From assembly GCA_963701075.1 (NCBI GenBank), contig OY969559.1:512001-576000 (forward strand): a DNA stretch of 64,000 nucleotides, given 5' to 3'. Within the stretch, counting starts at the first letter, position 1; every line of letters begins with the position of its first letter. This document shows, one piece after another, positions 5,257-63,607 of the stretch. A program made the translations under genes and the position numbers. The DNA is from an uncultured Nitrososphaerota archaeon (GTDB lineage: Archaea > Thermoproteota > Nitrososphaeria > Nitrososphaerales > Nitrosopumilaceae). The notes under the pieces were generated by a model. The model was not told the DNA's origin and made no database searches. It saw nothing but the letters and a program-made list of their open reading frames with translations.

Positions 5257-7270
5257 TTGGTTCTAAAACCTATACCAATGGCACGTATTGCCGTGCTTGG
5301 ATTGAGAAAAGATAGGCAGACTGTAGTCTCAGTTCTTCATGATCTAAATGCAGTTCAACTTGAACCCCTTTCAAAAGACGTTGCGGCACTGTTGAGAAAT
5401 GAACGCGATGATGATACGTACAGGCAAGTCTCAGACCAGCTTTTAAGAATGAAGGCTTTGAAAACTGTCCTGCCTCCAATGTCGGTCACACAATGCCAGA
5501 GATTTGGTTCCATAGGACAACTCTTGGAGGGCGCAAAATCTATTGATATAGACGACAAGGTTGCGTCCTTGGAGCGAGAAAAGGAAACCCTCCTGACCCA
5601 ACTCAAAGAAAATGGAAACAACATAAAGCTGGTTGAAGAGTTCTCATTTTTCCCTGAAGATTTTAATGTGTTGCAACTTTCATCTGCTCATTCTTATTTT
5701 GGTAGAGTGGATCAAAAGAACGCTGCTGGTTTTAAGCAAGCATTACAAATACATGGCCAAGATGTCTTCCTGTATTCAAAGGAAGAAAAAGACGCAACAC
5801 GAATTATTCTAGTCACTTTTCCAAACTTTCCTGCACACGCATTAGCTACTGTAGTCCAAGGGTATAATGTCAAACTTGAGGCCGTGCCCAAACTAAAAGG
5901 AAAGGCGGCAGAACTGAGCCAAAGTCTAAAGAACAAACAAAATGAAATTACTCAAAAAATAAATGAAATTGATAAACAATTAGCAGAAATTTCAAAGGAT
6001 CATTATGTAAATATCATATGCCTCGAAGAACAACTAGAAATTGAGAACAAGAAACTCGAGGTAGTCGATAACCTTGGCGTTACTTCAGATTCCTTTGCAC
6101 TCGAGGGATGGATACCAAAGTCAAAGGTAAGCCAACTAAAGAATAGCTTTGACCAGCATTCCAAGGGAACACTACTTTTTGAGCTGAGAAACCGACGAGA
6201 ACCCTCCAACCTTATTTGGCAATCCAAAGAGATTCAAACTGTTTGAGGCCTTTATCCGATTCTACTCCTTGCCGTCAGGAAAAGAATTCGATCCTACTCT
6301 GATCTTCGGTCTAATCTTTCCTGTCTTCTATGGTATGATGGTAGGAGACTTTGGTTATGGCCTTGTCATCTTACTTGTCTGTAGGTGGGTAATTCGAAGA
6401 GTAGAGGGAGGAAAGAAGAACTTTAACATCATGCCCACACCACTGCGTAAGTTTGCCTTGACTATATTGAAACCACGACAAATGGTAAAGCTAGCAAAGG
6501 CCATGACACCTGGAGCAATTATTGCAATGATTTTGGGATTCACATTTAACCTGTATTTTGGATTCCACCTTAACAATTACCTGTTCAACTATCTTAGCAG
6601 CACATTTGGAATGCACTTTCCGGCAGACGGGGCAATATTCAATCCAATTACTGGCCTAAGACATCTACTGTTGCTTGCTGGATATATTGGACTGGGCATG
6701 GTTACATTTGGGTTAATCCTTGGCATACTTAACACCTTAAGAGAAGGAGAGAAAAAACATGCAATAGGCAAGGTAGGCTGGATACTCTTTGGATGGGGGG
6801 TAGTCCTTACTGGATTGGCGCTATTGCACCACCAGCATGTCAACCCACTTCATCACATAGAGGGAGTTGGCTATGTTGGCCTGATGCTTGCTGGAATTGG
6901 TCTCATGTTCTATGGCGAGGGTGTAAGGGCAGTAATGGAATTGCCCTCAATAGTGAGTCACATTCTTTCATACACAAGAATTATTGGAATTTTGCTTGCA
7001 TCAGTTATTTTAGCTGACGTAATTGACTTTATTTTCACAAAGACACTGCATCACACAATACCTTTCATAGTGCTTGGCACCGTCATACTCTTCATAGGAC
7101 ACATATTCAATATCATCATAGGTGTCTTTGAGCCTGGCATACAGGGGGCAAGATTAGTCTATGTGGAATTTTTCTCCAAATTTTATCACGGTAACGGAAG
7201 ACCATTTAGACCATTTGGATCAACAAGAAAGTATACCTCTGATCAGTACGAGATAAAGGCCAAAGAATAA
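5257..7270 (+). CDS. atpI: V/A-type ATP synthase subunit I (split by a +1 frameshift at ~6186, probably a sequencing error)
   Basis: ORFs 5257-6246 and 6269-7270 join if one base after GAGCT(6181-6185) is removed (…LFEL-ETDENPPTLFGNPK…FYSLPSGKEFDPT); motifs MMVGDFGYG, SHILSYTR, RLVYVEFFSKFY. Confidence 0.9.
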
Positions 7271-52717: not shown

Positions 52718-52773
52718 AAAAGAAGACGATGGCTGACCGTAATTTAAACATCGCTATACCTAATGTCAAGCGT

Positions 52774-53886
52774 ATGTTAAATGAGAACGCACAAACTGAT
52801 ATCGTGGAGAAAAGTTTGCTGGTATTTGAAAAATATACCAGATCTAATGCTACAAGAAAGATGTATCGCTATCTCTTTGTAAGGTTTTTGAATTGGACTA
52901 AAATTAACGATGTGGATGGAATATTACAACTCAAGGAATCCTATCTACAACAATTAGTTGAAGATTATATTTTGTATATGCGAAAACAAATACTGCCAAA
53001 TTCATTCCAGCCTATTGTTGCATCATTAGAATTATTTTTTTCAATGAATGACAAGACCCTTAATTGGAAAAAAATCCGTAAGATGATACCTTCTCCTGTT
53101 AAGAAATCTGGATACAATGCTTGGCAAACAAAAGATATTGAAAAAATGCTTCAGCTTACCACATCCTTGAGAAACAAGGCTCTTCTTCACTTTCTTGCTT
53201 CTACTGCATGCAGGATAGGGGCAATATCGGAATTAAAGATAAAACATCTCTCTGACATGCCTGATAATTGCAAATCGGTATTGTTCTATGAGGGTACAAA
53301 CGAAGAATATGATGGATTTCTGACACCTGAAGCAAGTCAAATCATTAATGAATATCTAAACAAACGAAGAAAGGATGGCGAATATCTTAATGATGAATCA
53401 CCGCTTTTTAGAGCATCATACCAAGTAGGGGTACAAAAGGCTAAACCTCTTTCATTAAACTCGATTACCCAGATATTACACAGACTTGTCAAGCAAATTG
53501 ATACTAGAAAGAGGATTGGAAATAGGTTTAACGTAATGATGGCTCACGGATTTAGAAAGAGATTTGCTACGATCATCAAACTTGACAACAAGATAAGCTG
53601 GTCAGTTGGAGAAAGACTGCTTGGACACAAAACCTATCTTGAACGAGAATATTTCAGGCCAGTCAAGAATGAACTTTTTACAGAATTTAAGAAGATAATG
53701 CCTGATTTGATAATAGACCAGTCGGAGAAGCTAAGAGTAGAAGCACATCTCAAAGATGAACAAATGAGAAGGATAGAATCTCAAAAAGATGGTCTAATTC
53801 AGCAGCTCCAAGAACAGATTAAGGAAAATGAAAAAACTAAGACTAGCGTACAGAAGATATTAAATCATCTGAAGCTGGCATGCTGA
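52774..53886 (+). CDS. Tyrosine recombinase/integrase
   Basis: R (TACRIG), HxxR (HGFRKRF), LLGH, Y (REYFRP); C-terminal coiled coil; ATG 52774 preferred over 52729. Confidence 0.93.
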   Translation: MLNENAQTDIVEKSLLVFEKYTRSNATRKMYRYLFVRFLNWTKINDVDGILQLKESYLQQLVEDYILYMRKQILPNSFQPIVASLELFFSMNDKTLNWKKIRKMIPSPVKKSGYNAWQTKDIEKMLQLTTSLRNKALLHFLASTACRIGAISELKIKHLSDMPDNCKSVLFYEGTNEEYDGFLTPEASQIINEYLNKRRKDGEYLNDESPLFRASYQVGVQKAKPLSLNSITQILHRLVKQIDTRKRIGNRFNVMMAHGFRKRFATIIKLDNKISWSVGERLLGHKTYLEREYFRPVKNELFTEFKKIMPDLIIDQSEKLRVEAHLKDEQMRRIESQKDGLIQQLQEQIKENEKTKTSVQKILNHLKLAC

Positions 53887-54464
53887 AATACCATTTTATT
53901 TGATACTTGTACGAAGAATTCTCTATGCATTGCAGGATCTGATTGCTCGAGTAGTTCGAATAAATTCTTAATTTTGCTCAAACCTGAATCCCCAAATCTC
54001 TTAATCGTTTTCTCAGTGATTTTTGCCGTATTGCCAGAAATTACTGTTAGTGTCAATATGCGATAGGTCTGGAACCAATCAAGAGTTTTCCTGACCAATA
54101 TTTTCATAAGACTAGATTTAATCTTCTTATTTTCACGAGTATTTTTTTTATGAAAATCTAGTGTGGACTTGACCGTGTCCGTTAATTTATCCAAAATATT
54201 AAGTTCATTTTCTAACCAGTACTGAATACTATCGTTCACCGTTTTAAGTCCAGAAGGTATCCAATACTTGCCTTTTTCTTTTTTTGTTGGTGGTGTAAAC
54301 TCTACTATTCCTTTTTTTACCATTTTCTTAAGATGTTCATTGAAAGTTCTAGTAGTACATTTCTTGATAGTCTGAACTTCATCAAACAATTCGTTGTAAC
54401 GGAAACTTTCTTCTCTAATCAAAGATCTAAGAATTGCATCTTCAAAATCTAAATTTTCACTCAC
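53865..54464 (-). CDS. Winged-helix DNA-binding protein (candidate element repressor)
   Basis: FRYNELFDE…TFNEHLKKMVKKGIVE…GKYWI. Confidence 0.7.
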   Translation of the reverse strand: MSENLDFEDAILRSLIREESFRYNELFDEVQTIKKCTTRTFNEHLKKMVKKGIVEFTPPTKKEKGKYWIPSGLKTVNDSIQYWLENELNILDKLTDTVKSTLDFHKKNTRENKKIKSSLMKILVRKTLDWFQTYRILTLTVISGNTAKITEKTIKRFGDSGLSKIKNLFELLEQSDPAMHREFFVQVSNKMVFQHASFR

Positions 54465-54514
54465 TATACTTGAGGTATAGCCGATTATTTATTTAACTAC
54501 TGAGATGATGAGTT

Positions 54515-54655
54515 ATGGCACAAATACACATAAAGGATCAAACGATCGACCGCATTGAAAAAATAACAAGAAAAAAATTTACTCGAGGTGGTGATCGATT
54601 AATCAATGAGGTTATTGACATTCTAGAAATGAGGAAAAATAATGAAAACATCTAA
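54515..54655 (+). CDS. Small ribbon-helix-helix-like protein (46 aa)
   Basis: MAQIHIKDQTIDRIEKITRKKFTRGGDRLINEVIDILEMRKNNENI; divergent from the wHTH gene; not in the ORF track. Confidence 0.6.
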   Translation: MAQIHIKDQTIDRIEKITRKKFTRGGDRLINEVIDILEMRKNNENI

Positions 54656-54884
54656 GCCTAATTTTCCATTCGAGGATCCTAAGTACATTGATGATTCTAT
54701 TAACACAGAAATATGCCCTTCTTGTAATTTGTCTTTTTCAGAACATACCAACCATGAGATTGTAAAATGTGCATTAGACGAGCTAAGAGGTGGAAAGAAG
54801 CGGACTATTGACTTGACTGATCTGGAAAATAACGAATGGGTATGTGAAAAGTACCCGTCTAATAATCAAAATTGCGATCCATAG
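54642..54884 (+). CDS. Small protein with CxxC-x6-H-x7-C putative Zn site
   Basis: CPSCNLSFSEHTNHEIVKC; GAGG upstream. Confidence 0.6.
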   Translation: MKTSKPNFPFEDPKYIDDSINTEICPSCNLSFSEHTNHEIVKCALDELRGGKKRTIDLTDLENNEWVCEKYPSNNQNCDP

Positions 54885-54898
54885 CAAAGAAAGGAGGA

Positions 54899-55063
54899 TT
54901 GAGTACAATATCCACTGATTCATTCTCGAATTTAACAACGATTACAATAACCGCTGAGACTCGCAGGAGATTAGAGGTATTATGCAAGAAAGATCAAGAT
55001 TTTGACAGTGTGATAAACAAGCTTATTTTACTCTCGTCTGACAAATTGGAGGATTTTTGGTGA
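54899..55063 (+). CDS. Small RHH/antitoxin-like DNA-binding protein
   Basis: TTITITAETRRRLEVL…DFDSVINKLI; AGGAGG before TTG 54899. Confidence 0.65.
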   Translation: MSTISTDSFSNLTTITITAETRRRLEVLCKKDQDFDSVINKLILLSSDKLEDFW

Positions 55064-55890
55064 GTAACGGATCAGTAACACATCGAGGTCACGGATCAGA
55101 GTATGATATTGAACAGTTTTACAAAAGGGCTCTATCTATATGTGAAACTGGAAAGAGACCGTTTTGCTTTAAGGATTTTGATGATATCAGCCCAGGCAAC
55201 TTTAGGCAATATGTTCACAGATCAGGAAGCAAGATAGAGATTGTAAAAAAGGGAAGGCCAACACTGTACAAAGTTAGAGGAATTGAACTTGCAGGCGATT
55301 CCCATAGAATAACGAATAGGGTAACGGGGGTTAATCCAGAATTTGAACATCTACTAGAATCGCTCAGAGACCAACCTCCAATGATTCATGATATTCATCT
55401 AAAATTTGAATCTGAGTTGCATTCTAGTCTTGTTTCTAAAGGGTTATCGGTCAATCCAACTAATCACGCCATAGAGAACATAAGATATGCCGCACTTGAC
55501 AACAATATCAAAACCAAGATCCTGGTGTATCCATATACAACCCAGATTATCATAGGGTGTACTTGCAAACCAATTATCTATGATGCTTCAGGAATTTGGT
55601 CTCTATTTTCATATCTTTCTCAGGTACAATTTCATTTATCAGAACTAACAAACCATCAAGTCGTAATTCCAGAGGTAAAAACATGGATTGTTACACGTTA
55701 TGATTTCAATAAAGATGGTTCGGAATCAGTTATTGGAGGGCCTTTTTGCATGGAATTTCAAGATGTTTCAAATGGACTTATACGATTTTACCTAAAGAAG
55801 ATGCCAAACGGTGAAAGGATTCCAAGACTTGAACAAACTAGGACTCCTAACAAGTCGATTTCAGATATTGTGCAGGAGATCCTGTCGTAA
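55057..55890 (+). CDS. Putative Rep_trans-like rolling-circle replication initiator
   Basis: Ordered motifs VTRYDFNKD, LIRFYLKK, PRLEQ resemble the Rep_trans R-x-D-x-x-x-D, R-x-Y-x-K and R-x-E motifs; N-terminal wHTH-like region. Assigned by eye. Confidence 0.5.
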   Translation: MVSNGSVTHRGHGSEYDIEQFYKRALSICETGKRPFCFKDFDDISPGNFRQYVHRSGSKIEIVKKGRPTLYKVRGIELAGDSHRITNRVTGVNPEFEHLLESLRDQPPMIHDIHLKFESELHSSLVSKGLSVNPTNHAIENIRYAALDNNIKTKILVYPYTTQIIIGCTCKPIIYDASGIWSLFSYLSQVQFHLSELTNHQVVIPEVKTWIVTRYDFNKDGSESVIGGPFCMEFQDVSNGLIRFYLKKMPNGERIPRLEQTRTPNKSISDIVQEILS

Positions 55891-55906
55891 TGAACAATTG
55901 AGCCAA

Positions 55907-56137
55907 ATGACCCCACCAAAGCCTCCCTCGTTTAAAGCTAAAACGGGAAGAAAGACAAAACGTGAAAGGATCCAACAAGACGGAAGATTAATGACAAACG
56001 CCATTCTGGGAGATAGTCCTTGGGAAGCTTCTCTTTACGCAGGATGTGGCTATGAATATGCGGTGAAAAAATTCCTAGAGTTTGGATTCATTTTTGATCA
56101 TAAAACACGACTATGGATCAGGATCAAACGATTCTAA
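55907..56137 (+). CDS. Small basic hypothetical protein
   Basis: 3' part of ORF 55811-56137, following the Rep-like stop. Confidence 0.5.
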   Translation: MTPPKPPSFKAKTGRKTKRERIQQDGRLMTNAILGDSPWEASLYAGCGYEYAVKKFLEFGFIFDHKTRLWIRIKRF

Positions 56138-56156
56138 GTAAATGTAGAGACTCATT

Positions 56157-56625
56157 TTTACGTAAAATACGTAAATTTAGGCACGTAATGTTACAGGTTT
56201 TAGGGAATGGAGTCAGGATATGAAATTTTACGAAAAGTTCGTAAATTTAGGCACGTGATTTTACGGAATTTTCACAAAATGTGAAAATTTAGGCACGTGA
56301 TTTTTCACATTTTTGGTGAACTGGAAATAGAGGTTATGAAATTTTACCTATTTTGGGTAAATTTAGGCACGTGATTTTACACATTTTTATGAGTAGAAGG
56401 GGGAATGAAATTTATGAATACAAAACATCGTCCCGAGTTTCGTTCCTAGAATAGGGGGATCACCAGGGAAAAATAGACAAAAAAGAAGGTGTGATACCGA
56501 TCCCGAGTTTTAGATAGCGTTAATGGAAGATATCTACGAAATTTTTGAGTAATTGTGGGGGTACTGATCTGCGTTTTATTATTTTATGTCATATCATCCT
56601 AATTTTAGGCACGAAAATATGGCAT
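56157..56625. repeat. Array of four structured units (variable palindrome + invariant TTTAGGCACGT) plus one orphan core
   Basis: Cores at 56176, 56246, 56288, 56362 (spacing 70/42/74) and TTTAGGCACG at 56604; each of the four preceded by an 8-bp/3-nt-loop inverted repeat. Confidence 0.9.
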
Positions 56626-56745
56626 CATATGACCGAGGTAAAATTTCTGCTTGAAAGACATACTAACTTCGGTATAAAAAAAGATGAGATACGATCTAGA
56701 ATTTGTGGTCTTGCATGTGTATGATCAGAGATAATTTCTAAAACA

Positions 56746-56916
56746 TCAAACATCAGTACTTTTTGCAAGGTAAATTTTGTCATTTTCTTCTACGAACATG
56801 ATAGTCTCTCCTTCCTGAAGATGATATTTCTCTCTGACCTTCTTTGGTATGGTTACCTGGAACTTGTAGCTTATGGTCGTCATTCCAAGTATCTCTTTCT
56901 TTGAATCCTTTATCAT
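56746..56916 (-). CDS. AbrB/MazE/SpoVT family DNA-binding protein
   Basis: TTISYKFQVTIPKKVREKYHLQEGETIMF. Confidence 0.88.
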   Translation of the reverse strand: MIKDSKKEILGMTTISYKFQVTIPKKVREKYHLQEGETIMFVEENDKIYLAKSTDV

Positions 56917-57090
56917 TATTACTTGCCTTGATTGTAATGAATGTAAAGCAAGATTCATTAATTAGACCCAAGAAAGTAAAGAATTCTTGGAAAGTAAAGA
57001 TAATTTCATTCATGGATTAAGAGATTCCAGAGTTGGGATGAAGATAGAACCGTACCAAGTTCTATTTGTTAAATTTTACAATCGAGAACT

Positions 57091-57744
57091 ATGAAGCTTA
57101 ATCTCAATTATTCTGTCACTAGTACTTGCAAGCTCTGTCATAGGATATGGTGTACAAGCATCTGCTCAGATGACAGGTGGCGGGATCTGTGGTAATCATC
57201 CATGTGCACCAGGAGAGGTCTATCCGCCAAGTACCCCTTCATCAGGAACTGGAATTACAGTCTCAACTGACAAACCGTCATATAATTATGGTGACACCAT
57301 TACCATATCGGGTACAACGAGTGTTTATCTTGGTGATACCCCTCTTACGCTTATTCTAAGAAATCCAGTTGGAAATATTGTCATAGCAACACAACTCACA
57401 GTGGGAACAGACGATACCTTTTCTGAGACTGCGGTTGCTACAGGTGCACTGTGGCAATCTGCTGGTACGTATACAATATCTGCCATATATGGTAACACAA
57501 ACATGTCTGCTACAACCACATTCCAGTTCTCAGGTTCTTCTTTACTCCATCAAGTCCAAGTACTGTACCAAACGCTGGCACAAATGCTACTATTCAACAA
57601 CCACCATCTTCTACCACCCCGCAATCAAAGATTCCCGCTTGGGTCAAAAACATCTTCATCTGGTATGGCAGGGGCAGCATCTCAGACGATGAATTGATAG
57701 GTGCCATACAGTTTCTTATACATCAGGGAATAATCAAAGTCTGA
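57091..57744 (+). CDS. Secreted Ig-like protein with C-terminal thaumarchaeal module (apparent frameshifts at ~57099 and ~57542)
   Basis: Repaired: MKLISIILSLVLASS… signal peptide, VSTDKPSYNYGDTITISG, …KIPAWVKNIFIWYGRGSISDDELIGAIQFLIHQGIIKV. Confidence 0.7.
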
Positions 57745-57915
57745 AATTTTTGAATTACAAAACATCAACCTGAATTTCAGAAAACTTGATTCTCTTTGCG
57801 GTATCTATGGCATCACTCATACACAATTAATATGTAATACTAGTAAAAAATCATGATAACGATTACTAATGATTTGTACATTAGAGAAGAAAACTAAACA
57901 GAATTAGTTTTGCAT

Positions 57916-59355
57916 CTACTCAGTAATATAATGACGATTCTTAGGCCACATTTTGAATATTGGTTTATACTTATCCATTTTCAAGTAATTCTTTACAATT
58001 TTTATCTTGTTTTCTAGTTTTTCTGAACCTTGTTGGAATTGTGCATTTTCCAGCATAATGTATAATTCGTCTTTTGTTTTGTTTAAAATAACATATGTTG
58101 CAATAATTATTCTCGCATAATCCATCATCAAGAAGCCAAATTCATCCTTATTCTTGAATCGTTTTTTTATTGCCTTTTCAGTTTTATTACTCATTTTATC
58201 GCCATGAACATATTTGCTTCTTACATCATATGCAGTCAACATATCATCATACACCTTCTTCGAATCTAGTCCGATTAAACCTAATAATTTTGAAGAATTT
58301 AACGCAAATCGTAACTTTTGATCTCCCTCGGATTTAATCAATAATGCTTCGATAGCCATAACTGCATATGATACTGAAATTCGGATTAAATGAATTGATT
58401 TTAATCCATTCATATATCGTGATAATGATATTTCTAGTTCATTATCTTCCCTGTAATGGTTAACTATAGATCTAGTTAATCGTTTTTCCATTACTCCATA
58501 AAATAGCTTAAGATATTCTATCTCATTTTCTTTAATTCTTGCGTAGTATTGTAATCCTGGATCATGATAAAACCCCAATCTATACGTGCCATGAAATGTA
58601 CGTTCTATGTTTGAAGATTTGTTACTTATTCCAATACAATCAGGCGATGATAATTTGAATAATGTAAGAATTAATTCGATTTTTTTTAATGTTTCAAAAC
58701 TGTGATCATATTTCAAATCTTGTTTATACGTAAATTCTAATATGCAAAAACATTGCTCTACTACCTCATTATAATCATCCCATTCCTCTGGTTTAACTTC
58801 GATCTCAAAATCTTTCTTGTTGGCTTTTCTTATTCTAAGATATTTGTTTACGATGATTTCGTTTTGTTCTATCATAATTCCTGAAAGATAAGATGTTGTT
58901 TTGATTATCGGCAGTTCATCTTTAATCGAGTTAATAAGGTATTTCACTAAATTCTTAACATTAAAAAATTTTGTATCATGCTCATAACAAAAAACAAATA
59001 ATGCTTTTTCTACAAACGCTCCAAAAAGAAATTTATCTTCGTTCTTACTAATTTTGTTTATTCTTTCATTCATTTTTTTGTAAAAATCATCTTGTTTCAA
59101 ATCATTATGTGCAACGTAAAGGAGTCGATCCCAATCAATTTTTTCTTTAGTATCTGTAAATCTGTCAATAGAATACCATTTGTGAAACTTTGACCATCTT
59201 ACATTTGGAATTTTATAATATTTTTTACCCAGGGGGTGGTTTCTTTTTTTCAAATCTAGAACTAAATTTCGTAGATATGTGGTATACCTATACAGATCTA
59301 TCTCAATCTGTTTTAATTCTTGATCTGATGAAGACATGGAGTCATTATCTTTCAA
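57916..59355 (-). CDS. HEPN-domain protein (ApeA-like), putative defence RNase
   Basis: AVMAIEALL helix and YDVRSKYVHG (RxxxxH) in the C-terminal third; very AT-rich. Confidence 0.78.
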   Translation of the reverse strand: MKDNDSMSSSDQELKQIEIDLYRYTTYLRNLVLDLKKRNHPLGKKYYKIPNVRWSKFHKWYSIDRFTDTKEKIDWDRLLYVAHNDLKQDDFYKKMNERINKISKNEDKFLFGAFVEKALFVFCYEHDTKFFNVKNLVKYLINSIKDELPIIKTTSYLSGIMIEQNEIIVNKYLRIRKANKKDFEIEVKPEEWDDYNEVVEQCFCILEFTYKQDLKYDHSFETLKKIELILTLFKLSSPDCIGISNKSSNIERTFHGTYRLGFYHDPGLQYYARIKENEIEYLKLFYGVMEKRLTRSIVNHYREDNELEISLSRYMNGLKSIHLIRISVSYAVMAIEALLIKSEGDQKLRFALNSSKLLGLIGLDSKKVYDDMLTAYDVRSKYVHGDKMSNKTEKAIKKRFKNKDEFGFLMMDYARIIIATYVILNKTKDELYIMLENAQFQQGSEKLENKIKIVKNYLKMDKYKPIFKMWPKNRHYITE

Positions 59356-59463: not shown

Positions 59464-60834
59464 TTGAGCATATTTTCTAAAAAAATCGATTCAATAACCC
59501 GAGAAGACTTGGAATCTCTGATAAGAGAATCTGAACGAGAGAGCATACAACTTGATTATAAACAAGGCATAAATCCTTCAGAAAATGGCAAACATGATTT
59601 GGTGAAGCTGGTAGTAGGAATGGCAAACACAGAAGGGGGATACATAATTTTTGGAATTAATGAAGACAAACAAAAGGGAATACCGACTAAAATGGAAGGA
59701 ATAGATCCATCTGTTGGAGGACAAAAGGTTGACGAATGGCTAGAAAATGTCATCAATCCCCACATAAGTCCAAGAGTTGTAATTAGGATTAAAACTATAG
59801 CACTTGAAACCAAAATAGCATTAGTTTTGTGGGTACCGCAAAGTACAAGAAAGCCGCACATGTCGACCCTTGATAATGACTTTAGGATTTACCGACGTTA
59901 TAATACTCAGTCACTGCCTGCCAGTGAAGGAGAATTAAGAGAAATGTATCTTGCATCTAATAAAATTGAAAGAGTAAGAGAAGATTTCATATTGAAAAAA
60001 AATCTTACTAATGTCTCAAATAAGGAATTTGGTCTAACAACAAATTCTGATAACCTCCTGTCAAAGCTTGGCATAGAAAATAAGTATGAATATCCAATTG
60101 TGACGCTTTCATCCTGCCCTAGGTTTCTAGAAGAGAAAGTAAATTTCTCATCTGACACTTTTCAATCATGGCTGTCGAAAAATTCTTTTACAAAAATCCA
60201 GAATCAAGATATAGAAATTTTTCGTTATAATCCACCTATTCTAGAACAAAATTCGATAACAATATTGCGTAAGATGGGAATGAATGATAAAATATTGGAA
60301 TACCTTGAAATCCAAAGAAATGGATTTATTGAACAATGTAAAACATTACAACTTATTCATTCTGATGGAAACAAATTTGTATTAAATCTTGGGAGATTAA
60401 CTGTTGCACTTTGGGCATTTTTATATTATGTAAAAAATTTCTATCAACAAATTGATTATTTAGATGAATTTTCTATTTTTATGTCCATTAGAAATTCTAA
60501 TCGCCTTGAACTATGCGGTTTGTTAGGACTATCCGAAAGAGGACACCCGTATTCTACTGAATCAGATGACCTTTTTAGATATCTGGATATTACCCCCATG
60601 TATACTGCCACTACGTATGATCCAGTTTTTCCTACTACTCAAAAGGAACAAAATCTATCACATTCAGTTAATTTAACTATGAATAATCTCACGGATGAAG
60701 AGATCTATGACATTGTGAAAAATTTTGCAGATAGGATAAGTAATGCATTTGGTTTGGCTAAAGCACATTGTTATAATAACGATGGAACATTTGTTAATAG
60801 ACACTTAGACTTTTACAACAAACTACTATCTTAA
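59464..60834 (+). CDS. Schlafen/AlbA_2 domain protein
   Basis: ESIQLDYKQ, GMANTEGGYIIFGINE, KPHM…IYRR. Confidence 0.85.
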   Translation: MSIFSKKIDSITREDLESLIRESERESIQLDYKQGINPSENGKHDLVKLVVGMANTEGGYIIFGINEDKQKGIPTKMEGIDPSVGGQKVDEWLENVINPHISPRVVIRIKTIALETKIALVLWVPQSTRKPHMSTLDNDFRIYRRYNTQSLPASEGELREMYLASNKIERVREDFILKKNLTNVSNKEFGLTTNSDNLLSKLGIENKYEYPIVTLSSCPRFLEEKVNFSSDTFQSWLSKNSFTKIQNQDIEIFRYNPPILEQNSITILRKMGMNDKILEYLEIQRNGFIEQCKTLQLIHSDGNKFVLNLGRLTVALWAFLYYVKNFYQQIDYLDEFSIFMSIRNSNRLELCGLLGLSERGHPYSTESDDLFRYLDITPMYTATTYDPVFPTTQKEQNLSHSVNLTMNNLTDEEIYDIVKNFADRISNAFGLAKAHCYNNDGTFVNRHLDFYNKLLS

Positions 60835-61280: not shown

Positions 61281-61923
61281 ATGCAAATAGAATTAGATCA
61301 AAAGAAAATAGCAAGAAGCGGAGGAAGCACCGTATTGTACCTATCTAATGATGCTAAAAAATACATTCACGAAGGTGACCTTGTAGATTATCAAGTAATT
61401 CTAGACGATAACGTAGTAAAGATATTCATAACAAAAAAGCTGTTCAATTTTACTCTTGAAGATATCAAGAATCTCGTAAAAAAACATGAATTTGAAATAG
61501 AATATGATAAAACACTAGATCATATTCTGGTATTTAACGCAATAAAAAATCATCTTTCATTAAGACTATACTAAGAATGTTAATGAAAAAATATCTCCAG
61601 CAAATATTGCACTTTCTTTAACATGGCCTGACGTGAATGATTATGAAAAATACAAACATGTAACAGAACAGATAGATCAATTAAAAAATAAATACGATTT
61701 GATTACAAGAACTGAAGGAGATTTGGATGTGATTAACATACTGAAAGAACCATCTAGATATAAAGTGGACATAGTAGAGGCATTAAAACTACTTAAGAAA
61801 GCTGGCAAGAAAATAGGCTTATCAGCTGTAATTCGATTTGATGATGGAAAAGACGATCTTAATCGTATATCTAGTGCCCTCAACGAATTAATGACCTTAG
61901 ATTCCAAGATCTCTTTTCAATAA
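61281..61923 (+). CDS. AbrB-like N-terminal domain protein (+1 frameshift at 61565)
   Basis: KKIARSGGSTVLYL…EGDLV; removing A61565 fuses ORFs 61215-61574 and 61633-61923. Confidence 0.62.
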
Positions 61924-62511
61924 GTGTGCTAGCCGTAACATTATAGGTGTAACCGTAGGTTTTCTATCTAGACCGCTTATTTCTGCTTCAATGATAGTGT
62001 CAGATGAAATAATTTTCTCATCCCCATTAAGTTTAGAAACTATTATCACTACAACACGAACTCCAATTTTTTTAAAGAATTGCTTCCATTCATCAATCTT
62101 TTCAGTTTCATCTTCTTTACACACTATTATTCCATGTGTAGCCACTTTGAAAATCATCTCTGATTCTTTTGATATACGACCTGGGCCATCGCCAATTGCA
62201 ATAACATGACTTTGAGAAAGACTCTTAAATTCTTGAACCGCGGTTGTTACCTCTTTTGTTGTAACATTCGTTCGTTTACGGGAATCTCTATCTTCTTTTG
62301 TCATATTGCCAATGATAAATTCAATTGTTTGAGACCATAAATCCAATTCTTTGTGATCTGCATCTACGGCTATATCTTGTAAGGCTCTTGTAATACGTAC
62401 CGCAAATGTACTTTTTCCAGAATTGGGTGGACCACCAATAATGATTCTAATTGAGGATTTTTTCTCTATGCCTAGCTCTTTTCTGTGTTTGTGATGACTC
62501 ATCTTAACCAC
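61897..62511 (-). CDS. P-loop NTPase
   Basis: IIIGGPPNSGKST Walker A; IAIGDGPG Walker B-like. Confidence 0.8.
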   Translation of the reverse strand: MVKMSHHKHRKELGIEKKSSIRIIIGGPPNSGKSTFAVRITRALQDIAVDADHKELDLWSQTIEFIIGNMTKEDRDSRKRTNVTTKEVTTAVQEFKSLSQSHVIAIGDGPGRISKESEMIFKVATHGIIVCKEDETEKIDEWKQFFKKIGVRVVVIIVSKLNGDEKIISSDTIIEAEISGLDRKPTVTPIMLRLAHLLKRDLGI

Positions 62512-62512
62512 A

Positions 62513-63607
62513 ATGAGTGTAGTAATCCTTTATATATTAGGTTTTAATGCCTATAGCATGGCTGTTAGGGCCAATTCACGCACACGAAAGATGGAAATTC
62601 TGCAATTTACCTTACTTGCATCTGAACTAGTTTGGCGGGGGCGAACTCCATTTTTTGCCATAAATTCCAACAGATTTGGTAAACCATGGGAAGTTGAAAT
62701 AAACTATGGCCACGGTGAAGTAAAAGATATCCGAAAAAGAACAGAAAACGGTCCAAGCCGAAAGATCTTCCGGCAGTACCTTCCAGAACTACTCAAAGAG
62801 CGACTACTTACTAGAATAATTACAAAAGATAAAAAATCAAAATATTATTCAATTACTCCTCTTGGAATCATACATTTAATAAAATCTGAAATGTTTTTTG
62901 ATGGCGTCAGATATCCTCATCCTGAACGTAATTATGTATTATTGAGACTGGAAACATTTGCTGAACAAAATGTAAAGCCCTATAAGAGTATAATTTTTGA
63001 AAATGAGAAATTTTTCAAGTCTGATATCGATTTATTGAATGATATGTGGAAATCTCATCTTATTAGTCTTAGAGAAGAAATAACGCATGTTTTTACAAAC
63101 GTTGACATAATACAAGAACAAATGAATACAGAATATGAGTGGAATCACATGGAATACTATATTACAAATGGATATTCTGACGGAAATAGAATAAGATTAG
63201 CAAGCTTTGATTTAGAAAATAATAACTATGTAAAAATAACAGAATTAAATCAACTTCCTTCAGTAAGAGGCAGTGATTCTTCTGAACGTGAAGATAACGC
63301 TTTGATCCTAGATTCAGATCAGTTTAATCATTATCTGGCAAATCTTATGCTTTGTTCATTAATTTACGATAGTATAATGGCACACTATGATATAGCTAGA
63401 TATAGAAAAGTAAAGTGGGGTAGGAAAAAAGAATCAACAAAGACCATGGATGAGGAATTCAAAGAAGATCTGAAAAATATCCCGGAATATTTTTTGCGAA
63501 TACTCTTCTTATTTAGTAAACATATTTTACGCATAACGCAAGACCAATATCAATTAACAGTCAGATTTAGTGATAATTTGACTAAAACTCAATTCATAAA
63601 AAACTGA
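62513..63607 (+). CDS. Hypothetical protein with possible N-terminal winged helix
   Basis: LPELLKERLL…YYSITPLGIIHL; start uncertain. Confidence 0.55.
   Translation: MSVVILYILGFNAYSMAVRANSRTRKMEILQFTLLASELVWRGRTPFFAINSNRFGKPWEVEINYGHGEVKDIRKRTENGPSRKIFRQYLPELLKERLLTRIITKDKKSKYYSITPLGIIHLIKSEMFFDGVRYPHPERNYVLLRLETFAEQNVKPYKSIIFENEKFFKSDIDLLNDMWKSHLISLREEITHVFTNVDIIQEQMNTEYEWNHMEYYITNGYSDGNRIRLASFDLENNNYVKITELNQLPSVRGSDSSEREDNALILDSDQFNHYLANLMLCSLIYDSIMAHYDIARYRKVKWGRKKESTKTMDEEFKEDLKNIPEYFLRILFLFSKHILRITQDQYQLTVRFSDNLTKTQFIKN

Follow-up and report, generated by a model that had tools for sequence, protein, structure and literature searches.

A tandem hairpin array beside a gene for a predicted TBP-fold protein in a Nitrosotalea integrated element: possible rolling-circle origin modules

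Introduction

The closest described counterpart of the locus presented here is the replication system of the integrated archaeal element SNJ2, a temperate pleolipovirus. Its initiator RepSNJ2 (Rep-Arvir, PF25227/DUF7845) combines a TATA-binding protein (TBP) fold with a winged helix-turn-helix (wHTH) domain, and the main text of the study that described it (Wang et al., NAR 2026, PMC13107129) relates it to the Rep_trans initiators at the structural level only, its structural matches being viral TBPs and the Inoviridae Rep_trans protein A0A345MNV4. According to the same text, the RepSNJ2 gene is the last one in an operon of small open reading frames (ORFs) that includes an integrase, and RepSNJ2 drives replication jointly with an essential non-coding region of 210 bp that directly follows the gene. 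There, a non-conserved inverted repeat, the proposed bind site, stands upstream of a conserved hairpin, the proposed nick site, a layout that was likened to pT181 (PMC13107129). Here we analyse a 64,000-nt stretch of DNA (the window, to which all coordinates refer; window-equivalent positions above 64,000 extend past its end) from Nitrosotalea, a soil ammonia-oxidising archaeon, in which an array of hairpin units lies behind the gene for a 277-aa Rep-like protein inside an integrated element of about 12.3 kb.

Three other kinds of origin invite comparison with this array. The plasmids of the pT181 group have a single origin inside the rep gene, unlike the array described here. Iterons are direct repeats of 17-22 bp, regularly phased (about 22 bp) and bound by an initiator of the Rep_3/RepA type, and have no unit-specific compensating palindromes. 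Finally, origins of the pMV158 type consist of separate nic and bind loci, the bind locus being made of 11-bp direct repeats without palindromes of their own, and are served by the HUH-type RepB.

The replication of cryptic integrated elements of ammonia-oxidising archaea is scarcely understood, and there are no genetic tools for these globally important nitrifiers. The portion of the survey of such thaumarchaeal elements consulted here (Krupovic et al. 2019, PMC6563490) lists MCM, primpol, Cdc6/Orc1, helicases and one HUH-type rolling-circle initiator as their replication genes, and states that they have no signature gene. Among the matches listed in our literature search, there was no thaumarchaeal TBP-fold initiator, and the only prior accounts were the Rep-Arvir papers and this 2019 survey.

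We propose, with a probability of about 0.42, that the array consists of amplified double-strand-origin modules for rolling-circle replication of the 12.3-kb element, which would then be an integrative, plasmid-like element. We favour this origin reading because the Rep-like protein has a predicted TBP-fold domain with an invariant tyrosine, because the array has a layout of the bind/nick type, and because a word of its core is enriched near homologues of the Rep-like gene.

The array combines an invariant core with variable, complementary arms

By re-reading positions 55800-56800, we found that all the strings and coordinates given for the array in a previous reading, made from the letters alone (the sequence-only reading), were correct. 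A repeat-family analysis placed the unit starts at 56157, 56227, 56269 and 56343, that is with a spacing of 70/42/74. Each unit is composed of an 8-nt arm A, a 3-nt loop, a complementary arm A', a 14-nt core TTTAGGCACGT(G/A)AT and an A-like third arm, all described on the + strand. Unit 1 (56157-56197) has A at 56157-56164, the loop at 56165-56167, A' at 56168-56175, the core at 56176-56189 (TTTAGGCACGTAAT) and a poor third arm at 56190-56197. In unit 2 (56227-56267), A occupies 56227-56234, A' 56238-56245, the core 56246-56259 and the third arm 56260-56267, while the same parts of unit 3 (56269-56313) lie at 56269-56276, 56280-56287, 56288-56301 and 56302-56309. Unit 4 (56343-56383) comprises A at 56343-56350, A' at 56354-56361 with one G-T pair, the core at 56362-56375 and the third arm at 56376-56383.

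The 10-mer TTTAGGCACG occurs exactly at five sites of the window (56176, 56246, 56288, 56362 and 56604). Allowing at most one mismatch, we found 6 matches in the window against a shuffle mean of 1.99, and 6 was reached in none of 100 shuffles. The four units proposed earlier therefore hold, but the fifth core at 56604 had been overlooked. The 16-mer core has four forward and no reverse copies in the 1.92-Mb genome, which places it in the array only, and the controls gave 0. The core is the same in three units and differs by one base in unit 1, whereas the 58-nt units as a whole are just 64-81% identical. We could also agree with two exclusions made by the sequence-only reading. First, the array is not CRISPR-like: the gaps between the 24-nt conserved blocks measure 46, 18 and 50 nt, where CRISPR spacers would be unique and of near-constant length, and the sequences flanking the blocks resemble one another. 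Second, simple iterons are disfavoured by the irregular spacing and by the lack of any Rep_3-type initiator in Pfam scans of the island ORFs. The array does resemble iteron-type theta origins in that an invariant word of 14-24 bp is directly repeated several times next to a candidate initiator gene, but it differs from them by its 70/42/74 spacing and its unit-specific compensating palindromes.

We then computed covariation on a gap-free alignment of the four 58-nt units, using 500 shuffles as controls. In the A/A' helix, all 32 cells are paired, three of the eight pairs are altered on both sides, and the score was reached by 3 of the 500 shuffles; slid controls paired 6-50% of the cells. Thus, as claimed before, the arms vary between units yet stay complementary. 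The helix between A' and the third arm has 28 of 32 cells paired and three of eight pairs compensatory, with a score reached by 11 shuffles, the unpaired cells being three in unit 1 and one in unit 4. That the third arm tracks its own unit is consequently true in full for unit 3, where the pairing extends to 12 perfect bp (56276-56287 with 56302-56313), and largely so for units 2 and 4, but poorly so for unit 1. Since A' is common to both helices, the two hairpins would be mutually exclusive. When the units are folded as single-stranded DNA (ssDNA), each of the four has the A/A' hairpin as its fold of lowest energy, whichever strand is taken, with energies between -3.7 and -10.2 kcal/mol and z between -1.5 and -4.2.

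Such alternative hairpins could also act as switch or processing sites in a structured RNA or a small-RNA array read from the + strand, the latter being another option of the sequence-only reading, but we regard this as highly improbable. The folding data give it some ground, as a 281-nt stretch is predicted to fold as RNA at -59.6 kcal/mol (z -3.19), a value reached by none of 200 shuffles, and in units 3 and 4 the third arm is followed by a run of 4-5 T, oligo-T being an archaeal termination signal. However, an Rfam scan of 54000-58000 at E up to 1 returned no match, the hairpins do not differ in quality between the two strands, as would be expected of a DNA palindrome, and G-T pairs occupy only one of the 32 A/A' cells.

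The Rep-like protein has a predicted TBP fold with an invariant tyrosine

The Rep-like gene (55057-55890, + strand) encodes the candidate initiator, a protein of 277 aa with an N-terminal winged helix and a C-terminal TBP-fold domain. It has no match in Pfam, PHROG, NCBIfam or the PDB sequences, including a PDB profile search (0 hits), and no usable match in the Atlas, and none of 256 pattern matches in viral contigs could be confirmed as a homologue. The family is nevertheless large: 306 candidates included 30 close relatives, and at least 554 representatives of clusters at 50% identity were found at E up to 0.001. The closest homologues are 80% identical (P0002, on a 45-kb contig) and 77% identical (P0003, on a 12-kb contig), and the names of homologous proteins point to Nitrosotalea. 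Homologues are present in 16 of 151 genomes of the host family and in 5 of 63 genomes of the genus. These two genome sets and the set of 400 family genomes used below include G077, G092, G093, G206, G228, G260 and G338, which are flagged as unpublished and from which no hit was used.

In the full-length structural model (predicted local distance difference test, pLDDT, 73.8), residues ~10-76 form a winged helix (structural Z 8.0-8.4 over ~60 residues). The C-terminal domain (~100-274), modelled alone by AlphaFold2 with 81 sequences, reached a pLDDT of 95.5 and a predicted template-modelling score of 0.89. Its best structural neighbours are TBPs, with Z 6.9-7.0 over 134-138 residues and a Foldseek E of 6.6e-5, and the TBP-like N-domain of archaeal-type seryl-tRNA synthetase is found among them too. 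The Rep_trans initiator RepDE (4cwc_A) ranks 10th of 48,161 chains (Z 5.5, 139 residues aligned, root-mean-square deviation 4.9), and RepSTK1 (4cij) has Z 4.3 (Foldseek E 0.016, prob 0.94). A search of BFVD returned giant-virus TBPs and Inoviridae proteins, with the Rep_trans protein A0A345MNV4 at rank 36 (E 0.045).

In 55 diverse members of the family, 22-43% identical to the query, H110, P171, D219, Y244 and R256 are invariant, while D39, Y70, W209, K246 and E258 are conserved in at least 90%; the conservation of the C-domain residues holds again in the 81 sequences. The model places Y244/K246 and R256/E258 on adjacent strands of the sheet, and the order acid..acid..Tyr..Glu is that of RepDE. 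The RepDE residues are D46, D142, Y191 and E214, and those of Rep-Arvir Y283/E25/E303, as given in the main text of PMC13107129. An invariant tyrosine with acidic and basic neighbours on a TBP-fold sheet is the defining trait of nickases of the Rep_trans type, although its predicted presence here is no proof of one.

A word of the core is enriched downstream of homologous genes

The sequence-only reading had suggested searching the flanks of homologues for the core. The full core is missing from the 19 homologous loci collected, but a shorter word of it, TAGGCAC, is enriched downstream of the homologues: it is found at most 500 nt behind the gene in 4 of the 19 loci (+68, +70, +379 and +443). 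Outside this range, the 19 loci contain the word 9 times in 209 kb, so that 0.41 such loci were expected and the enrichment is ~10-fold. Moreover, an ATAGGG box lies within 60 nt of three of these four downstream words and of none of the 9 others (0.023 expected per site), and the same box stands behind the modules of the window. Together, these counts argue that the core-like word with its G-rich box is, as far as sequences can tell, a recurrent but not universal companion of the Rep-like gene. Besides, in 5 of the 19 loci the homologue is immediately preceded by a gene for a related integrase.

A model for the modules and its comparison with known origins

If the array is made of origin modules, replication would start with the excision and circularisation of the element by its integrase, after which the 277-aa protein would bind a module. 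The unit-specific palindrome A/A' would be the double-stranded bind site, and the invariant core would be the cut site, looped out in single-stranded form whenever the third arm, and not A, is the partner of A', so that each module would toggle between a bound and a presented state. Cleavage depending on the tyrosine would be expected inside TTTAGGCACGTGAT. The four tandem units would have arisen by recent amplification of one module of ~70 nt, and copies of such tandem direct origins would be gained and lost during rolling-circle initiation and termination. We infer each of these steps, namely binding of the array by the 277-aa protein, nicking of DNA, the core as nick site and rolling-circle replication itself.

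Several features of the locus are those of an origin: the array is close to the gene of the candidate initiator, the core can lie in the loop of a hairpin, although one of low stability, and a non-conserved inverted repeat adjoins it. With SNJ2 and Rep-Arvir, as presented in the main text of PMC13107129, the locus has in common an integrated archaeal element, an integrase, small overlapping ORFs, a protein with a TBP fold and a winged helix, a non-coding stretch just downstream in which a non-conserved inverted repeat stands beside a conserved hairpin, and structural matches to TBPs and A0A345MNV4. Set against the same text, differences are apparent as well. The tyrosine lies in the context R-x-Y-x-K here and KHYYM there. 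The modules number four to five in tandem here and one there, and here a single arm serves the palindrome as well as the core hairpin. The present host is a thaumarchaeon, and thaumarchaea are not mentioned in that main text. The architecture has a precedent published in 2026, and the suggestion of an undescribed system, made by the sequence-only reading, was an overstatement.

The origins of pT181 and pC221, served by RepC, RepD and RepDE (Rep_trans, PF02486), are similar in the TBP-like fold of the initiator and in their bipartite make-up, in which a conserved hairpin with the nick site adjoins an inverted repeat that varies and confers specificity. As for the origins of the pMV158 type, the likeness consists of direct repeats and a hairpin near the gene of a rolling-circle initiator, which here is a candidate only. 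Taking these comparisons together, the rolling-circle sites offered as one option by the sequence-only reading are supported by the TBP fold with its invariant tyrosine, by RepDE as a structural neighbour, by the published layout and by the enrichment of the core word, and are weakened by the better match to TBP and by homologues without an array.

A wider proposal, namely that compact (~280 aa) tyrosine enzymes with a winged helix and a TBP fold form a third branch next to Rep_trans and Rep-Arvir, with an origin working as a three-arm switch and present here as a tandem multi-origin array whose copy number would change when one unit initiates and another terminates, is in our view doubtful. 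If the origin reading were true, TBP-fold rolling-circle initiators, known in archaea only since 2026, would gain a new phylum-level host range and a new form of far smaller size and altered domain order. An unannotated protein family of several hundred clusters would gain a function, and natural tandem origins with a built-in two-state hairpin would become amenable to work in vitro. The initiator and one ~70-nt module would also make a candidate minimal replicon for a vector in Nitrosotalea or Nitrosopumilaceae.

Extended modules, additional copies and copy number

The repeated module is ~70 nt long and not 44, as the third arm is followed by a G-rich box and then by ATGAAATTT, which recurs at 56220, 56336 and 56405 (a family of 3 copies). 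The linker of module 1 (56198-56226, + strand) carries the G-rich box TTTTAGGGAATGGAG and then ATGAAATTT, and equivalent linkers span 56310-56344 and 56384-56413. Tiny ORFs of 12, 12 and 14 codons begin at 56220, 56336 and 56405 and extend into the next unit.

These linkers raise the question of whether the modules are tandem promoters or operators, which we hold to be rather unlikely. The A+T-rich start of the core would then be a TATA-like box, and the palindrome together with the CACGTG-containing core would be operators for the TBP-fold protein acting as a regulator, for a wHTH-like 76-aa ORF, or for an AbrB or a DUF7557-like ORF of the island; each module would drive a short leader or a tiny ORF, perhaps antisense to the AbrB gene. 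Across 599 upstream regions of this genome, TATA-like words (TTTAWA, TTAAAT, TTATA) peak at -30 to -26 from starts constrained by an upstream stop, which indicates that transcripts here are, judging from sequence, mostly leaderless. In line with this spacing, the ATG at 56389, which opens a 21-codon ORF, is preceded at a distance of 31 nt by TAAATTTA of unit 4 (56358), and the ATG at 56629 at a distance of 29 nt by TAATTTTA of the fifth copy (56600). Three modules close with the G-rich box and ATGAAATTT, the TBP fold is primarily a DNA-binding fold, and the island encodes several small candidate DNA-binding proteins. On the other hand, units 1-3 have no ATG at a leaderless distance, and the tiny peptides vary with the arms (EKF vs LFW), which argues against coding selection. 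Moreover, a dimer operator needs no complementarity in the variable inner 3+3 nt. Finally, convergent genes lead up to the array and leave it no gene that it could regulate, and four tandem promoters would have no obvious use. A scan for sigma-70 promoters and terminators gave nothing above shuffles, but such a scan is unsuited to archaea. If the modules did prove to be promoters or operators, the array would be an ordinary regulatory repeat of a mobile element.

Beyond the four units, a fifth copy (56588-56633, + strand) has the core form TTTAGGCACGAAAA, with a 7-nt loop AGGCACG at 56607-56613, an inner stem of 5 bp (56602-56606 with 56614-56618) and an outer imperfect inverted repeat of 19 nt; its hairpin, at -4.9 kcal/mol (z -0.69), is no better than those of shuffles. 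A degenerate sixth module (~57696-57780, + strand) has a decayed core, and its TGAAATTTTTGAATTACAAAACATC resembles 56406-56429 (25 nt, 92% identity, E 0.014).

A peat-metagenome contig of run X11 (~89% identity) matches the window from where the gene ends, across unit 1 and up to 56205, continues with 62 nt resembling the stretch behind unit 4, and rejoins the window at 56456. This comparison rests on the listed differences to the window and not on the contig sequence itself; on that basis, the X11 relative appears to carry a single module. Given such a single module, units 2-4 would be a lineage-specific amplification, or else the X11 relative would have undergone a deletion. Behind the Rep-like gene, opposite 55896-55914, the same contig (record 4) also has ~520 nt (record coordinates 6568-7092) without a counterpart in the window.

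The apparent single module of a close relative and the degenerate copies at 56600-56650 and 57696-57780 would also suit a recent tandem duplication without function in a decaying island, whose arms were kept complementary by intrastrand template switching (quasi-palindrome correction) and not by selection. The array is moreover confined to this genome lineage, none being found as an array elsewhere in its own genome, in the 400 family genomes, in viral contigs or in metagenome contigs. We nevertheless consider this explanation improbable: the core has one change in four copies that are otherwise so divergent, and decay would not spare 14-16 nt every time. In addition, a neutral duplication does not account for a core word enriched beside homologues in other genera.

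Observations that weigh against an origin

Set against the proposal that the modules are origins is a series of observations on the protein, on the hairpins and on the homologous loci. With regard to the protein, TBP outscores RepDE and every Z of the C-domain is below 8, and therefore the identity as a nickase is not proven; judging from the model, a non-catalytic DNA-binding protein with a TBP fold would suit the structure equally well. The protein has 277 aa and the winged helix first, while Rep-Arvir proteins, as the main text of PMC13107129 presents them, have ~500 aa and the catalytic domain first, followed by a central wHTH. The tyrosine motif is YxK, not the YxxK of Rep_trans, and the pT181/pC221 replicons are bacterial plasmids. 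Even at E 10, none of 26 family members matches PF25227 or PF02486, and PF25227 has no match in 301 genomes of the phylum although it does match the control, Haloferax volcanii.

As regards the array, the covariation is that of four paralogous sequences from one genome, among which template-switch correction of palindromes could produce covariation without selection. The ssDNA hairpins are weak and AT-rich. On the + strand, their energies lie between -4.1 and -9.8 kcal/mol and their z between -1.5 and -3.4, and those of units 1 and 4 are equalled on that strand by 17 and 12 of 200 shuffles; counting both strands, 8 to 17 of 200 shuffles fold as well as these two units. The third arm of unit 1 hardly pairs. 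Each module contains a G-rich, Shine-Dalgarno-like box and an ATG, and the A+T-rich start of the core stands at a promoter-like distance from two ATGs. Besides, if a replicon of the rolling-circle type had its nick sites repeated directly in tandem, they would be expected to be unstable.

Homologous elements without arrays, which the sequence-only reading itself had regarded as evidence against its proposal, are in part what we observed: neither the full core nor an array of at least three copies is present in any of the 19 homologous loci, and extending the search to flanks of ~6 kb added none. In the nearest representative genome (71% protein identity), there is just a look-alike with 3 mismatches 60 nt past the stop, and in 15 of the 19 loci TAGGCAC is absent within 500 nt downstream. 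The variant 14-mer TTTAGGCACGAAAT, the form seen in the fifth copy, lies inside two unrelated families resembling miniature inverted-repeat transposable elements (MITEs), in genomes G014 and G059. Neither tblastn nor a hidden Markov model of the family found a 277-aa homologue in the flanks of these MITE-like loci or in the loci hit in metagenomes. An exclusive link between core and protein is thus weakened, since TTTAGGCACGAAAT sits in MITE-like repeats.

The core word elsewhere

TTTAGGCACGAAAT was found in further Nitrosopumilaceae genomes, and in most of its instances (T)AGGCACG forms the loop on a short stem of AATTT and AAATT. The MITE-like repeat of G014 (L101-L105) measures ~105 nt and has 5 copies with 8-bp target duplications, while the element of G059 (L107-L111) is 80 nt long and has 5 copies, in which the long terminal arms co-vary and the central TTTAGGCACGAAAT is fixed. 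These copies could be mobilisable mini-origins, or the word could have another role. As single copies, occurrences of TTTAGGCACGAAAT are near chance, with ~3 expected in 151 genomes by our own estimate. The ~29 copies in the 3.2-Mb genome G080 belong to one insertion sequence, as 11 of 12 fetched copies have identical flanks (L042-L053), and were set aside as coincidental.

Scanning viral contigs for the exact core gave no match. The same scan of genome contigs gave 10 stretches, all of them bacterial tandem repeats by unrelated genes, and that of metagenome contigs gave 6 single matches in unrelated contexts, which are uninformative as the pattern itself imposes a small stem; all of these were rejected. 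Bacterial intergenic repeats with periods of 22, 41 and 42 nt contain TTTAGGCACGT (L062, L064 and L068 from one Prevotellaceae metagenome-assembled genome; L067, L070 and L071), and one 22-nt repeat has 16 nt (AATTTAGGCACGTGAT) in common with the archaeal core, its neighbours being unrelated housekeeping genes. Given the design of the search, these bacterial repeats are probably due to chance. By blastn of the array against the 400 family genomes, we inspected the 14 best non-self loci, none of which has the core; the look-alikes are an AT-rich palindrome within a conserved protein-coding gene or isolated cases, and one upstream of an ammonium-transporter gene (L083) was dropped.

Near the homologues of the Rep-like gene, one of three matches to GGCACGAAA (L121) falls inside a transposase-like ORF and was dropped as chance. 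Other repeats were seen there as well. At one locus (L120, G134), five palindromic repeats containing TAACGT stand behind the operon, ~130 nt beyond a TAGGCACGAAA core. Three copies of ATAGTCACACTA with a 20-nt period lie just upstream of the homologue at another locus (L008, 1433-1483). Two 28-nt repeats are found in a further homologous element (L009, 1141-1201), and their inner 12-mers are mutually reverse complementary.

The island and its genes

The array sits in an integrated element of 12.3 kb, as three observations indicate. First, the 13-bp direct repeat TTTAAACATCGCT marks both junctions, its left copy, the left attachment (att) repeat, being at 52743-52755 and its exact right copy at window-equivalent 65053-65065, past the end of the window. 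Second, the flanks of 5 of 5 genomes of the same genus align up to 52758 and resume at window-equivalent 65053, so that the site is empty in all of them. Third, metagenome contigs of relatives (runs X5, X6 and X11) diverge after 52755. The host genes around the island are archaeal: those for ribosomal proteins S27e and L44e, read by eye, and CobD/CobS. In the description of cryptic Thaumarchaeota integrated elements given in the part of PMC6563490 consulted here, the traits shared with the present element are a small integrase-bearing island, short direct repeats, a site outside tRNA genes and a majority of ORFans; the 277-aa family and the hairpin modules are not among the elements described there.

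The tyrosine integrase (52729-53886, + strand; 385 aa) matches PF00589 (E 2.7e-10) and phrog_216 and is XerA-like. The first 9 codons of its gene straddle the att repeat: the start codon (52729) belongs to the host side, and the repeat makes up codons 5-9. Once the element is circular, the frame of the integrase would run on upstream into the right end of the island, whose + strand ORFs 62513-63607, 63879-64505 and 64623-64928 would then precede it. An integrase placed behind these right-end ORFs recalls the SNJ2 operon, which forms only upon excision.

As this enzyme is encoded 2.3 kb upstream of the array, and since in attC sites the structure is conserved and the sequence variable, the units might be folded single-strand recombination sites of the attC kind or arm-type sites of the integrase. 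This option, raised by the sequence-only reading, found no support in our data, and we judge it scarcely credible. The att core TTTAAACATCGCT is a different 13-mer, unrelated to the units, which stands at the island ends, 3.4 kb off, while arm-type sites are normally within ~150 bp of the att core. There are no cassettes between the units, whose spacing is 42-74 nt, and contigs of relatives from 4 metagenome runs display no rearrangement joints among the units, except for the shorter form in X11.

Between the integrase and the Rep-like gene, a 199-aa ORF (53865-54464, - strand) has no Pfam or PHROG match and one weak NCBIfam match far below the cut-off. It is followed by three small overlapping ORFs (54515-55063, + strand) of 46 aa, 80 aa (Cys-rich) and 63 aa, the last with a weak match to DUF7557 (PF24434, E 2.1e-5, just under the cut-off). 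The overlaps leading into the Rep-like gene are 14, 13 and 7 nt. Between this gene and the array, a 76-aa ORF (55907-56137, + strand), missed before, is a weak lead to a winged-HTH fold (IclR/BrxR wHTH, TM ~0.5, below the threshold, Atlas structures). Unit 1 begins 267 nt past the stop of the Rep-like gene and 20 nt past this 76-aa ORF, the last of the tight + strand run. The array lies within a gap of 608 nt that is free of genes and bounded by convergent genes, the gene on its far side (56746-56958, - strand; PF04014, E 4e-8) encoding a small DNA-binding protein of the AbrB/MazE type. A gene of the AbrB type adjoins the Rep-like homologue in 3 of the 19 loci.

The remainder of the island encodes a Schlafen/AlbA_2-domain protein (59464-60834; PF04326, E 1.2e-16), a weak P-loop NTPase match (61897-62511) and a Cys/His-rich ORF of 208 aa (window-equivalent 63879-64505), a cargo that, from its sequence, is possibly of a defence type. 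Finally, inside a 175-aa ORF (57170-57697), metagenome depth jumps at 57325-57540, where many contigs of several runs join or break; the joints skip 68-165 nt and many ends are loose, which suggests that this is a repeated or widely shared domain-coding segment.

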